Virus record (IMG/VR): IMGVR_UViG_3300030372_003848
Coordinates: 1-36,178 of that record
From: a virus
Lineage: Duplodnaviria > Caudoviricetes
Reading direction: 5' to 3' (one strand)
DNA length: 36,178 nt
Within the stretch, counting starts at the first letter, position 1. Each line of letters begins with the position of its first letter. The notes under the pieces were generated by a model. That model saw only the letters and a list, made by a program, of their open reading frames with translations. It made no database searches and had not been told where the DNA came from. A program made the translations under genes and the position numbers. Positions 8,589 to 33,549 of the stretch are shown in pieces.

Positions 8589-9590
8589 ATGGCCAACACG
8601 GTTCAACCTAAACCATTGGAATTACAAACAAGTATGGAAGAGGCTGTGACCTCATTTGAGCAATACCTAGAACCTGAAGAGGAAAAACTAGAAGAGGCAC
8701 AAGTAGAATCACAAGCCGATGAAACTGTTGAAGAAGAAATTGTCGAGGAAGAAGAACTCCAAGCCGATGACTTTGAAGAAACAGAAGAAACAGAAACTCT
8801 TGACGATGAACAAGATGAGATAGAGGAACAAAATGAACCTCAACTTTATGCCGTTAAAGTAAACGGCGAAGATGTTGAAGTCACCATTGACGAACTTCAA
8901 AGCTCGTATTCTAGACAAGCAGATTACACTCGAAAGACTCAAGAACTCGCTCAACAGCGTAAGACTGTTGAAGAACAACAAAGCGAGGTTGCAAAAAACG
9001 AGGCGATTTATAAGGAACTGCTGCCCAAAATGGAAGCTGCATTAAGCGAAAGTTTGGGTACTGAGCCTGACTGGGAAACTTTGTATTCTAACGATCCCAT
9101 TGGGTATGTCCGAGAACGCGATTTATGGAATGAAAAACAACAGAAATTGCAAGCCGTACAAGCTGAACAAACGAGACTTCAAGAAGAAGATCAAGTGAAA
9201 CAGCAAGAGCAGATACAGAAGTATATGCAATACGGCGAAAAGCAAATTCTTAATCATGTTCCTGAGTGGAAGGATAAAACCATCCAACAAGAAGAAAAAT
9301 TGGCGATTCGAGATCATGCAATCAATGATTTGGGATTTACAGCAGAGGAAATCAACCAAGTGTATGATTACCGCCTGTTGATGGGGTTAAGAAATAGCTG
9401 GATGCAAAACAAAACGCAAAAAGCTGTGAAGAAAAAACCCACTCAGAAGGCATCTGCTAGAAACAGAGTTGCAAAACCTGGTTCAGTCTCTCGTAAAAAA
9501 ACCAGCACTCCTTTAAAGAAATCGAAAGCACGATTAGCCAAATCTGGGAAAGTCCAAGATGCGGCGAAAGTATTTGAACAATTAATTTAA
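8589..9590 (+). CDS. Capsid scaffolding protein
   Basis: Acidic N-terminus, VKVNGEDVEVT.DEL..Y.RQADYTRKTQELA motif, basic C-terminus; directly upstream of the capsid gene. Confidence 0.85.
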   Translation: MANTVQPKPLELQTSMEEAVTSFEQYLEPEEEKLEEAQVESQADETVEEEIVEEEELQADDFEETEETETLDDEQDEIEEQNEPQLYAVKVNGEDVEVTIDELQSSYSRQADYTRKTQELAQQRKTVEEQQSEVAKNEAIYKELLPKMEAALSESLGTEPDWETLYSNDPIGYVRERDLWNEKQQKLQAVQAEQTRLQEEDQVKQQEQIQKYMQYGEKQILNHVPEWKDKTIQQEEKLAIRDHAINDLGFTAEEINQVYDYRLLMGLRNSWMQNKTQKAVKKKPTQKASARNRVAKPGSVSRKKTSTPLKKSKARLAKSGKVQDAAKVFEQLI

Positions 9591-9625
9591 CTTTTAATTT
9601 CTAGGCAACTAGAAGGAGTATTAGC

Positions 9626-10809
9626 ATGGCCAAAGTGACCAATGCTTAGTATCTTGAGCATTTAAAACACCGTGAATTGCTGGGAAGCCCTAACGGATAA
9701 GACGAGGGTAATCAGCAGCCAAGACAAGCAGAAATGTTTGTAAGGTTCAGAGACTAGGTTATGGAGTCCTAACGAATAAGACGAGGATGGTAAAAGCCCA
9801 AGAGCGCGGTGCAACTCTTAGAGTTGATGATATAGTCCAATCTTATAAGAAACTATAAGAAGTCATCCATAAACAGTTTGACGATAATAATAATGTCGAT
9901 ACCTATACTGCTACTGCTGACAGAGAGGCTTTGAGTGATCTGATCTATAACATTTCACCAATGTCAACTCCTGTCATGTCAGCTATTGGCCGTAATTCGG
10001 TAAAGAATGTACAATTTGATTGGCAAACTGAAGCATTACCCTCAGCATCCGCTACTGGACAGCTAGAGGGTTTTGAGCTTTCAAGAACAGCAGCGACCGC
10101 TACTGTAAGAGAAAGCAACATTTGTCAAATCTCAAGCAGAGATGCAACTGTGACAGGTTCACAGCAAGCATCAGACCCCGCTGGTAAGAAATCAGAAATG
10201 GCTCACCAACTCGCAATCATGGCAAAAGCCCTGAAACGCGACATGGAGAAAACCATTTGTGGAAACACTGCCAAAAACGCGGGCAACGCAACCACAGCAA
10301 GGCAAACGGGTGGCTTTGAAACTTGGATTGAAACCAATGTTTCCAGAGGCACAAACGGGGCTGGTGCTGGTAATGGTGCTGCACCTACAGATGGCACACA
10401 AAGAGCGTTCACAGAAACCATTTTGAAAGACGTACAACAACTTTGTTTTGACAACGGCGGCGAACCAACTATGTTGGTTGTCGGTTCTCACGTCAAAGGC
10501 GTTGTGTCTGGTTTCACTGGACGAGCTTCTGCTAGGCAAATGATCGATGCAACAGCGATCGAAGCTAGCGTGAGTGTGTATTCTGGAGACTTTGGTGAGT
10601 TGAAGGTAATGCCTTCTAACTTCAGCAGAGGCAGAACAGCACTGTTCATCGATCCTGATTTTGCAAAAGTTTCATATCTCAGAGATTTTGAAACTGTTGA
10701 CATTTCAACAATCGGTGATGCTCAAACTAAAATGTTGATAGTCGAGTACGGACTAGAGTGTTCTAATGAGAAAGCTCATGGTCTGGCTGCTGACTTATCT
10801 ACATCGTAA
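9626..10809 (+). CDS. Major capsid protein (DUF5309/SU10-like), spliced join(9626..9647,9896..10809), 311 aa
   Basis: AAGGAG RBS then ATG 9626 (MAKVTNA); removing 9648-9895 restores MAKVTNAFDTYTATADREALSDLIYNISP in frame with the 9931-10809 ORF; FDWQTE.L and KALKRDME motifs. Confidence 0.9.
9648..9895 (+). ncRNA. Group I self-splicing intron (248 nt, no ORF) in the major capsid gene
   Basis: P GAATTGCTGGGAA, Q AATCAGCAGCC, R GTTCAGAGACTA (9745-9756), S GATGATATAGTCC; P1 AAUGCUU/GAGCAUU with U9647-G9656 wobble; P3 9668-9674/9805-9811; P8 9812-9826; terminal G9895; P10 GUAUC/GAUAC. Confidence 0.93.
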
Positions 10810-24933: not shown

Positions 24934-25611
24934 TCAATAATTCTGATTGGCATCACGAATGAAGCCCCTTATGCGTTCGTCAAACTGATCGGGGTCTGTG
25001 CCTTGCCATCCAATGTAATGAAACAGCCAGTCGTTCTCGGCTGTGGACCATGCGCCCTCAGAAAAGTCATTGAGATCGGCTCGATCCAATCCGAATTGTC
25101 GCATGTTCCAAAGCACCCAATCTTTGATGTGTTCTTCGCTGTAAACATAATGCTTGGCACGATTGTCAATGACCTTTGTAAATTTATTATAAACACCCGT
25201 CCTTTTTCTAATGAGTCCTTTGTTGAGGTGTTTCTTCAAAATCTTCCGAACCGAATGGATGGTGTATTCGCCTTTGCCTTTCACTCTTTCCACCGATGAG
25301 AGAATGTCGGTTTCGGTGGTTTGTTGGTTGGCAATGCAGCGAATCAAGATGATGGCTAAAATGTATCGATCGGGTGGATTCGAAGATTCATTGATTGCAT
25401 CACTAAAATTGGATGACAATGATTCCAATCTTGAAGATCGCAGTGCAGACAGAAACAAAATGGTCACACCCAAACACATTACAAAGGTGTCAAATGTTTC
25501 GAAATTAATCGTGCAGTTCTTCCAAGCCTTTTTAAAGAAAAGGCTGTGATCGGGGTCTAATTCTCGTGGGAACTCTAAATACTGAAATCCGCCTTCTTTT
25601 ACTTCTCTCAT
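24934..25611 (-). CDS. Hypothetical protein, possible winged helix
   Basis: GGAG RBS; SVRKILKKHLNKGLIRK..DNRAK resembles a MarR-type wing. Confidence 0.55.
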   Translation of the reverse strand: MREVKEGGFQYLEFPRELDPDHSLFFKKAWKNCTINFETFDTFVMCLGVTILFLSALRSSRLESLSSNFSDAINESSNPPDRYILAIILIRCIANQQTTETDILSSVERVKGKGEYTIHSVRKILKKHLNKGLIRKRTGVYNKFTKVIDNRAKHYVYSEEHIKDWVLWNMRQFGLDRADLNDFSEGAWSTAENDWLFHYIGWQGTDPDQFDERIRGFIRDANQNY

Positions 25612-26324
25612 GACAACTCCTTTATTTTCAACAATAGATTCCTGACGTTTGATGGATGCCAGGTTCTTCCATAGCGTGATTTGATGCCCTCGGCATTGAG
25701 TCGGTTGGCAATGTCCTGATAGGTGTTTGCCCCACTCTTTTGAATCTTCTTCACCACAGGGCGCATCGTGACCGCAAAGTCATTGGCTCGTCTGGTGTGA
25801 TCTTCCGAGGCTTTTTGGGTGGCTTCCTTGATGTTTGGATTGCCAAACTTCATGCCTTTGGCTTTCAGCTTTGCCATTGCTTTCTTCGTGTTGCGAGAAA
25901 TCTTTTTGCGATTCTGTGCCACGATGTTTGCCATCATGTCCATCGGAATCCAATGAACACCCCAAATGTCGAGTGCTGCAAATTTCAGGCCATACTTGTT
26001 GTATGCCTCTAACATCAGGCTCACAAACTTCAAGTTGTTGATCCTAGAACCGAGCTTTGGACTCAATATATTGGCTTTGTTTCTGACTGCATATTTAATT
26101 GCCAATTCAAGCTGTGGCATGTGATAAGGATTCCTCGATTTCTCTTCGATGTATTCCTTTAATATGTGTCGTGTCTTGCCCTTATCACGAAGGGGTGGAT
26201 CGGTCGCTTCCTTGAGCTGGATGCGTTTCTTGTCGATGTCATCGTCACTGATGTGGTAGGTCACGAACCGAGTGGTGCGCCCTACTTTCACCTTGCCGAC
26301 ATCTGCAAAATCATCTTTTGTCAT
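25608..26324 (-). CDS. Serine recombinase/resolvase-like protein with degenerate catalytic motifs
   Basis: ISRNTKKAM...KAKG.KFGNP and YQDIANRLNAEGIKSRYGRTWHPSNVRNLL; YxRVS and DRLxR motifs altered. Confidence 0.75.
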   Translation of the reverse strand: MTKDDFADVGKVKVGRTTRFVTYHISDDDIDKKRIQLKEATDPPLRDKGKTRHILKEYIEEKSRNPYHMPQLELAIKYAVRNKANILSPKLGSRINNLKFVSLMLEAYNKYGLKFAALDIWGVHWIPMDMMANIVAQNRKKISRNTKKAMAKLKAKGMKFGNPNIKEATQKASEDHTRRANDFAVTMRPVVKKIQKSGANTYQDIANRLNAEGIKSRYGRTWHPSNVRNLLLKIKELS

Positions 26325-26333
26325 ATTGTTCTC

Positions 26334-27182
26334 CTATGATGATTGTATTGAATTAAAAATCTCGTTGCCAACATCGTTCACATTCTGCTTGGCAGTCTCA
26401 TCCATGACATGTGCATAACGCATAGTCGTCTTTGGACTTTTATGCCCTAGAAGGTTGCCTATTTCAACAAGGCTCACTTTCTTAGAACGCAGGGCAAATG
26501 TTGCAAACGAATGTCTGAGGTCGTGTAAACGAAGATCGGGTACACCCGCCTCTTCCCTTACTTGCAACCAAAACTTATCGGGGTATTTGCTTTGCATCAT
26601 TGAACTGCCTTTGCGTTCTAGGTGGTTCACAATCTGCATCGCTTGATCGTTTAGATGGATCACACGATCACCATCTTTGTCATCGGTCTTGTGTTCCCTT
26701 AAAACGATTCTGTTGCCTTCTAGGTCATCCCATTTGGCAGATGCCAACTCACCTTTGCGACAACCTGTGTAGATTAAAAGCATGATGAAATCGATGTGTT
26801 TCTGATTGTCTTTTGTGCGTTTGCGATTGAGTACATCAAAGATGCGTTTCATTTCATCTTCATTGCAATATCTTTTGCGTTTTAAGTCTGGATGTCGCTT
26901 GATAAAGGTGCATGGGTTCTGCTCGACCATCTCGTATCGCATGGCAATATCAAATGTGCATTTCAATATCGTGAGACATCGATTGGCGATACCATTGCCA
27001 CTTTTGCTTACCTCATAGAACCAATCGTTGATCTGATCGTGCTTGATGCGTTTGATGTTCTTATCGCCTATTGAGTCTTTGATGTGTCTCAACCATATTC
27101 GTTCCATGGAAGATACGGTTTTCTTCTCACGGCGATTGAGGTCGCACACATAAAGCTCGAAGGCTTTATTGAGGGTTTCCAT
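26334..27182 (-). CDS. int: Tyrosine integrase/recombinase
   Basis: YTGCRKGE, HDLRHSFAT, LLGHKS, MRYAH give the R-HxxR-H-Y catalytic set. Confidence 0.93.
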   Translation of the reverse strand: METLNKAFELYVCDLNRREKKTVSSMERIWLRHIKDSIGDKNIKRIKHDQINDWFYEVSKSGNGIANRCLTILKCTFDIAMRYEMVEQNPCTFIKRHPDLKRKRYCNEDEMKRIFDVLNRKRTKDNQKHIDFIMLLIYTGCRKGELASAKWDDLEGNRIVLREHKTDDKDGDRVIHLNDQAMQIVNHLERKGSSMMQSKYPDKFWLQVREEAGVPDLRLHDLRHSFATFALRSKKVSLVEIGNLLGHKSPKTTMRYAHVMDETAKQNVNDVGNEIFNSIQSS

Positions 27183-33144: not shown

Positions 33145-33549
33145 ATGGCCCATTACAAAAAACAATATGGCATTTCAGGGGAGATGCTAACAGCGACCTA
33201 TTTTCTATTAAAAGGCTTCAATGTGTTTCAACCGTTTGCGACATCATCAAGGGATTTGCTCGTGGAGATTGAAGGCAATTACTACGGCGTACAGGTTAAA
33301 AGTGGAATGAATCCTTGGAAAGACCCAACAAGAAAGAAAAAGCGATACAAGTTTAACCTGAAGCACAGCTCAACTCACGATCCATACGATCAAGACATCG
33401 TTCATATCTTCGCTTGCGTTGATCTCAGAACAAAGTTTATTTTGTTTGAAGAAAACAGAGGCCAGAAAGCCAAGGCTGTGACTATTGATAAGTTCACATT
33501 AGAGAATCAAGAACAATCATTTGACGAGATGCTAAAAAAAATTAAATAA
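33145..33549 (+). CDS. PD-(D/E)XK endonuclease (PDDEXK_5 / I-Ssp6803I-like)
   Basis: G..GE......L.KGFNVF.P.....RDLLVE......VQVKS pattern. Confidence 0.65.
   Translation: MAHYKKQYGISGEMLTATYFLLKGFNVFQPFATSSRDLLVEIEGNYYGVQVKSGMNPWKDPTRKKKRYKFNLKHSSTHDPYDQDIVHIFACVDLRTKFILFEENRGQKAKAVTIDKFTLENQEQSFDEMLKKIK

Follow-up and report, generated by a model that had tools for sequence, protein, structure and literature searches.

The window analysed in this study comprises an entire virus record (36,178 bases) and represents a complete phage with direct terminal repeats of 99 nt. It encodes a portal, a scaffolding protein, a major head protein, tail and DNA-transfer proteins, an endolysin, an integrase, a primase/helicase, and a terminase. 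The gene of the head scaffolding protein (positions 8589–9590, + strand; phrog_3927, E 3.4e-53) lies directly 5′ of the major capsid gene, which is read from the same strand and is preceded by the Shine–Dalgarno-like sequence AAGGAG (9612–9617, + strand) 8 nt before the ATG at position 9626, a motif that is placed alike in close intron-less loci. The capsid gene consists of a first exon of seven codons and one additional nucleotide (9626–9647), an intron of 248 nt (9648–9895), and a second exon (9896–10809), all on the + strand. Exon 2 matches PF17236 (E 1.5e-86, 291 bits at a cut-off of 24.1, from model position 14) and phrog_1328 (E 1.9e-86, from position 25). By this profile score above the cut-off and by its place behind the scaffolding gene the predicted protein is a member of the SU10-type capsid proteins. 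The best of its 290 matches in GenBank phages is less than 50% identical; in GTDB, three short contigs of MAGs and a Caulobacteraceae contig with a 50% match were found. The runs of RNA libraries that hold the region are labeled as marine, seawater, or aquatic metagenomes. A promoter scan of the sequence yielded 7 sites versus 3.9 ± 1.9 in shuffled sequences, none of which is informative. Elsewhere in the genome a tyrosine integrase gene (phrog_1; 25608–27182, − strand) adjoins a gene with a weak recombinase/invertase match, and this integrase region suggests that the phage is temperate.

The initial annotation had proposed from the letters alone that a group I intron lacking an ORF interrupts the capsid gene within codon 8, and the reading frame agrees with this proposal in every position. 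Starting at ATG 9626 the frame reads MAKVTNA and then encounters the stop codon TAG (9647–9649), which in the unspliced RNA extends across the 5′ splice site. Removal of the nucleotides 9648–9895 (248 nt, the last base being G) creates the Phe codon T|TC and leaves an open frame of 311 codons up to position 10809. A search with Infernal, which had been named as a check, gave a match to the group I intron model RF00028 with 86.1 bits against a gathering threshold of 50 (E 8.5e-21); this is the sole Rfam match in the genome at E ≤ 1. The match spans 9591–9859, with the 5′ part of the model misplaced onto the upstream DNA, and therefore the boundaries of the intron were taken from the homologues and from the pairings P1 and P10. 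Within the ranges tried, 16 pairs of T/G boundaries leave an open frame; the 15 alternatives were rejected as they do not reproduce the N-terminus of the empty alleles. On the contrary, the N-terminus obtained by removal of 9648–9895, MAKVTNAFDTY, is found exactly in 71 of the 73 intron-less homologues with which it was compared. The intron is indeed devoid of an endonuclease ORF, as its longest stop-free stretch in any frame of the 248 nt is 51 codons.

As foreseen, mechanical ORF calling truncates the protein: the ORF list begins the capsid at TTG 9931 and gives 292 amino acids, 19 residues too few. Initiation at this TTG or within the intron was considered and rejected; no common in-frame start precedes position 9931 and the ATG at 9893 is out of frame. 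In addition, the first 19 residues are conserved in all 73 empty alleles, and the solved relative 9ny2_A in the PDB, matched by the capsid of the intron-less locus L004 with E 2.9e-47, is aligned from residue 1. For these three reasons synthesis of the full-length capsid protein from the filled allele would need splicing.

The distribution of the insert among related phages was followed with exon 2 alone as the query in IMG/VR, which gave 434 relatives, the best 80 of which were examined. In 73 of these 80 the intron is absent, an ATG is found 19 codons before the query start and codon 8 is uninterrupted. The other seven carry the intron at exactly the predicted junction, and all of them fall within the 18 loci with at least 92% amino acid identity. 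Running cmscan on the first 20 loci yielded nine matches, namely the seven codon-8 copies and two copies at another site. Filled and empty alleles are found at close as well as at larger distance to the window: L004, with 99.5% nucleotide identity in exon 2, is intron-less, and L011, with 85.8% nucleotide identity, bears the intron. Two motif scans (13 and 10 matches) recovered the seven copies, the genome G001, and five further contigs; these six additional contigs encode capsids that are ∼60–71% identical and also have the intron at codon 8. All 13 other same-site copies are 248–255 nt long, thus none of them holds an endonuclease gene. In each of the 14 same-site copies the last base of exon 1 together with the first two bases of the intron forms a stop codon, either TAG, TAA, or TGA. 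The exon 1 allele of the window does not occur in any of the 73 intron-less loci and is linked to the intron in all four viral pattern matches, in a scan which missed the contig of L003, a known carrier. Scanning metagenomes for exon 1 gave four matches, three of which belong to an unrelated bacterial gene; the fourth carries the intron, does not differ from the window in the compared region, and is not independent. Compared with the loci L004–L016 the capsid gene (9896–10809) is a mosaic, with the differences arranged in blocks of 100–200 nt, pointing to frequent recombination in the population.

Standard base pairs form throughout P1, P3, P4, P5, P6, P6a, P7, P7.1, P8, P9, P9.1, and P10 of the predicted ribozyme. 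The elements originally read from the sequence, that is P1 with the U–G wobble at the splice site, P3, P6a, P7, P8, P9, P10, the terminal G, and the lack of P2, could all be confirmed. The internal guide sequence (9649–9662) pairs with both exons. Its part 9656–9662 forms with the end of exon 1 (9641–9647) a P1 of 7 bp containing the wobble pair U9647–G9656, U9647 being the splice-site U, and P1 is intact in 14 of 14 same-site copies. The part 9649–9653 forms P10 with exon 2 (9898–9902), which has 5 bp in the window and 3–6 consecutive pairs in the other same-site copies; the intron terminates with the omega-G at 9895. The spacing between P1 and P3 amounts to 5 nt only and therefore P2 is absent. 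P3 (9668–9674/9805–9811) encloses P4 (9678–9683/9712–9717), P5 (9687–9691/9705–9709), P6 (9718–9720/9744–9746), and P6a with a GAAA loop (9724–9730/9735–9741). The predicted guanosine-binding helix P7 (9750–9756/9833–9838) contains the bulged A9751 and is followed by an insertion (9757–9798) with P7.1 (9757–9760/9795–9798) and a capping hairpin (9766–9770/9784–9788). P8 (9812–9826) has a short loop of 3 nt at the position that is occupied by an HNH gene in Bastille-like relatives, and P9 (9842–9847/9854–9859) and P9.1 (9862–9865/9879–9882) complete the structure. The minimum-energy fold gives P1, P3, P4, P5, P6, P6a, P7.1, P8, and P9 (z −2.36).

The structure is also retained among related introns. 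Pairing was scored on the structure drawn from the window's own sequence, and a set of 16 introns was assembled by adding to the window 15 of the 26 other dereplicated cores, picked for similar layout. In this set 90.6% of the cells are paired and two-sided changes are found at 32 of 55 pairs, in statistics that ignore relatedness; P5 and P9 are poorly aligned here (62.5% and 64.6%). For eight same-site variants the corresponding values are 97.0% paired cells and 14 of 76 pairs with two-sided changes, compared to 33–39% pairing in controls with slid partners, which likewise ignore relatedness. P3, P4, P6, and P7 are 100% paired in both the 16 related and the eight same-site introns, and two-sided changes occur in P3, P6, and P7. 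Individual exchanges are instructive. The pair −2 of P1 is U–A in two and G–C in six of the eight variants, the guide sequence tracking a synonymous exchange in the Ala codon of exon 1. The copy L258 swaps two adjacent pairs of P7 together, both sides are altered at three of the four pairs of P7.1, and P10, by register, changes together with the Asp codon in four copies. A possible pseudoknot between 9761–9765 and 9866–9870 was discarded: it had seemed invariant in five copies but is broken without compensation in the wider set. Taking sequence, structure, and homologues together we conclude that the insert at 9648–9895, which splits codon 8 of the SU10-type major capsid gene, is a group I intron.

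Subgroup IA of the group I introns is defined by one or more extra paired regions between P7 and P3, and IA2 proper has two separate stems, P7.1 and P7.2. The intron described here has a 48-nt insertion between P7 and P3 with a P7.1 that covaries and a capping hairpin, so that its earlier description as IA-like is justified; this insertion adopts a single stem interrupted by an internal loop. Subgroup IA2 is the usual phage type of group I intron (PMC11835236, PMC11878797) and is heterogeneous according to the second report (PMC11878797). The intron contains two copies of a 19-nt motif with a single difference between them, one in the P5 hairpin (9689–9707) and one in the hairpin of the P7–P3 insertion (9768–9786), and both copies are retained in the same-site variants. 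The P5 copy displays the CCC…GGG and asymmetric loop signature of class-R2/IC3 GNRA receptors (PMC2275092), and the loop of P6a remains GNRA, either GAAA or GUAA. Two loop–receptor contacts may substitute for the missing P2.

The nearest introns in GenBank phages are those of the family A DNA polymerase genes of Bastillevirinae (Wphvirus), which are of the I-BasI type (PMC11878797). They share with the window intron the core, the P7.1 insertion, and the layout of P9 and P9.1. The intron of phage Nigalana (KU737344) is 79% identical over 85% of the window intron in two pieces and has an HNH gene in P8, whereas that of Belinda (KX147229) is 73% identical over 90% in one piece and has no HNH gene. 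In contrast to the capsid gene described here the host gene of these introns is a DNA polymerase gene of a 160-kb Bacillus myovirus, and most of them carry the HNH gene in P8 instead of the loop of 3 nt. The first pair of P7 is A–U in Belinda and G–C in the window.

Introns in this capsid family are not restricted to codon 8. The loci L017 and L018 have a different group I intron of 264 nt near codon 56 of the capsid gene (RF00028, 104–109 bits). It is located at about 2100–2370 in L017, in strains which are otherwise 96–98% identical, and is nearly the same as the third intron of G001. The capsid gene of G001 is interrupted three times by short group I introns, at codons 8, 30, and 56 (L239, positions 1196–1446, 1512–1781, and 1860–2125) with exons of ∼65 and 78 nt, and a fourth intron (L240, about 1500–1770) lies near the start of a downstream tail-like gene. 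The first two introns of G001 are 82–86% like that of the window, and its capsid gene is a candidate for exon skipping. In L260 a second capsid intron near codon 112–132 (model hit 738–980, − strand) is found besides the codon-8 copy. Distant SU10-type capsid genes (30–50% identity; L096/L138, L111, L125, L149, L177, L185, L186, L187, and L206) have one to three short introns at other sites. Related introns with an ORF of ∼190 codons in P8 were seen in another host gene in L103 and L105 (around 1390–2100, matched strand), where RF00028 gave no score at gathering level. A scan for the core motif, covering 15 of the 64 IMG/VR parts with a motif that biases towards relatives, gave 123 loci on 119 contigs, 43 of the loci having short flanks; 14 contigs have an SU10-type capsid match and 10 of these are outside the top 80. 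The sites at codons 8, 30, and 56 are clear, and those at about codons 24, 88, 121, and 240 are approximate; automatic mapping of the other intron sites is reliable for close capsids only. Short introns occupy about seven sites of the SU10-type capsid family.

A search for the spliced junction in RNA had been named as a check, and an exact joint was seen in one of four runs. The four runs of RNA libraries (X1–X4) were compared as contigs, which carry no strand or level, and a library of this kind may hold DNA. In X4 a contig of 1,639 nt (depth 10.6) continues from 9300–9647 directly into 9896–10520 with no letters between, and a separate contig of 151 nt (depth 2.8) lies inside the intron. At all 21 positions compared, comprising 18 substitutions and three unchanged sites, the larger contig has the letters of the intron-bearing locus L006. 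When the hidden changes of X4 are deduced by subtracting the shown from the tallied substitutions, 21 changes in exon 2 fit L006 and one unplaced G>T is located upstream of 9648. The empty alleles of the X4 background (L009 and L007) need three changes in exon 1, including one at position 9646; the contig allows at most one and position 9646 is unchanged at the joint. Fifteen DNA contigs with a junction-like motif were ruled out as the source, being 54–74% identical in exon 2. The runs X1–X3 were not accepted as evidence for splicing: the letters at their joints differ and agree with those of intron-less alleles. The exact joint is therefore present in a single run, on a haplotype linked to the intron, and the other three runs display intron-less alleles. 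We suggest that the X4 contig most likely derives from spliced RNA, and less likely from an empty allele of the sample that escaped detection. Splicing in infected cells is hence probable.

On this basis we propose with considerable confidence that the ORF-less intron splices itself out of the late mRNA, giving rise to the capsid protein of 311 residues, and that it is probably a tolerated passenger which moves between strains together with short flanks. It is the optional presence of the intron that makes it probably a passenger. Between the window and L004 eight differences are found in the 42 nt around the site and two in the other 894 (Fisher p 3.5e-10), and between L008 and L007 four of 42 around the site and six of 894 elsewhere (p 6e-4). 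Among the 12 pairs compared there are also pairs without clustering, for example L011 and L014 (0 of 42) and the window and L009 (p 0.53). In addition, capsid backgrounds that are only 93–94% alike share an identical exon 1 and an identical stretch of the first 49 nt of exon 2, with introns 99.6% alike. The clustering and the identical flanks fit a transfer of the intron with short flanks, and in the pair with L004 either allele may have donated the short tract. Recombination or gene conversion during co-infection by related phages would spread the intron, which has no endonuclease of its own.

A different way of spreading would be active homing by an endonuclease that is encoded elsewhere, either free-standing or in an ORF-bearing sister intron at the same site, the synonymous changes then being escapes from cleavage. 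The clustering of synonymous differences at the site in some pairs would be explained in this way, the closest GenBank introns have an HNH gene in P8, and collaborative homing of ORF-less introns has been described (PMC3984707). Nevertheless, none of the 13 other same-site contigs has an ORF-bearing intron, the flanks of the intron-bearing loci are collinear with the window and have no added gene, and no HNH, GIY-YIG, or LAGLIDADG family was detected among the ORFs scanned. The genome does contain an ORF of 134 amino acids (33145–33549) with a weak PD-(D/E)XK match (PF11645, E 5.2e-6) before the small subunit gene of the terminase, which could be taken as a hint of a partner nuclease. This ORF was rejected for that role: it is ∼12 kb away around the genome, it has no PDB match, and it is present in the intron-bearing G004 as well as in the intron-less G006; it was not found in the near-complete G008. 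Altogether we regard active homing as improbable and favor a spread by recombination or gene conversion.

According to the chemistry of group I introns, free guanosine bound at P7 would cleave after U9647 (PMC3984707). Exon 1 would then attack after G9895 with P10 aligning the exons, in a reaction that requires divalent metal ions (PMC3984707). A ribosome translating the unspliced RNA would produce a peptide of seven residues, terminate at the junction stop, and thereby not enter the ribozyme core; an in-frame stop at the beginning of introns of this type has been read as a folding aid (PMC3984707). Because P1 occupies the coding bases 16–37, translation and formation of P1 would compete.

The initial annotation put forward the idea that the dependence on splicing could gate late gene expression. 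In its explicit form the rate of splicing, set by GTP, Mg2+, or ribosome traffic over the 22-nt exon 1, would time or limit capsid synthesis to the advantage of the phage. The filled allele in fact requires splicing for the full-length capsid, P1 is located within coding bases next to a junction stop that is preserved in 14 of 14 copies, each of the three stop codons being represented, and a “molecular on-switch” hypothesis is discussed in a report that also treats translation-dependent splicing of a T4 intron (PMC11878797). However, 73 of the 80 relatives are intron-less, among them one at 99.5% identity, and three RNA runs show intron-less alleles; no sign of regulation was seen in the tests made and the gating is unsupported. 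Furthermore, the in-frame stops are a known folding aid (PMC3984707), and the occurrence of related introns in a tail gene and at about seven sites of the capsid gene, of which most are distant from the start codon, fits the colonization of conserved sequence better than a placed switch. We therefore consider a regulatory gate unlikely, and retain the passenger reading. That the filled allele is dead or crippled, by decay of the intron or as an assembly artifact, with the capsid made from TTG 9931 or not at all, is scarcely credible: the TTG-started ORF of 292 amino acids exists and P9.1 has four standard pairs only, but 13 other viral contigs contain the intron as well, which comes in several variants and shows two-sided changes in P1, P3, P6, P7, P7.1, P8, P9, and P9.1, all 73 empty alleles retain the first 19 residues, and the exact junction is present in a contig of an RNA library.

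Phage group I introns are said to prefer genes of DNA metabolism, a bias that is called unexplained in two papers from 2025 (PMC11878797, PMC12350094). The rarity of a capsid intron that this preference had implied was overstated, as introns in capsid genes have been published (PMC7886860), a tail tube case is known from phage Twort (PMC11878797), and several other sites are occupied in the same capsid family. The published capsid introns are group I introns in the major capsid genes of crAss-like phages of the Delta and Zeta groups (Yutin et al. 2021, PMC7886860). They were detected through their encoded endonuclease domains and reside in large gut phages (PMC7886860). In contrast, the intron described here has no ORF, is located in a phage of 36 kb whose capsid is of the SU10 type, and varies in its presence among near-identical strains. 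The gene orf142 of Twort harbors three introns that are not known to contain ORFs. For this late structural gene, which encodes the tail tube, group I introns and exon skipping have been reported (PMC11878797). Twort orf142 is a tail tube gene of a myovirus and the capsid gene of the window has one intron; the three-intron capsid gene of G001 is the closer parallel. Short introns, on average ∼206 nt by model hit, are also present in the Jug gut jumbo phages, where splicing of 37 of 76 is supported by metatranscriptome reads (PMC12880540). Examples given are terL, nrdD, and DNA polymerase genes, with ∼18 introns per genome of 360–400 kb compared to one in the window (PMC12880540). Our literature search, which covered mostly papers outside subscription, found no report of the codon-8 site or of introns in SU10-type capsid genes. 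The codon-8 site, the presence/absence polymorphism, the junction stop in 14 of 14 copies, and the short introns at about seven sites thus appear to be new.

The splicing chemistry itself is textbook; the value of the locus lies in a clean pair of filled and empty alleles, a probable RNA junction, and a colonized capsid family. As a practical consequence, ORF calling starts the capsid of the window 19 residues short and splits capsids with internal introns. As a rather speculative extension, the SU10-type capsid genes of small aquatic phages could be a reservoir of a phage lineage of compact endonuclease-free introns that need no homing enzyme to colonize new sites and to pass from strain to strain, and the codon-8 copy, characterized by a 22-nt exon 1 and an invariant junction stop, might tie capsid output to ribosome traffic at the start codon; we attach a low probability to this view. 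Together with its relatives the locus provides well-supported counter-examples, located in a capsid gene, to the bias towards DNA metabolism, and these are of the kind that is missed by endonuclease-based screens. As alleles with and without the intron occur side by side at up to 99.5% identity, the cost of the intron, its enzyme-free spread, and the competition between the ribosome and P1 would be directly testable.
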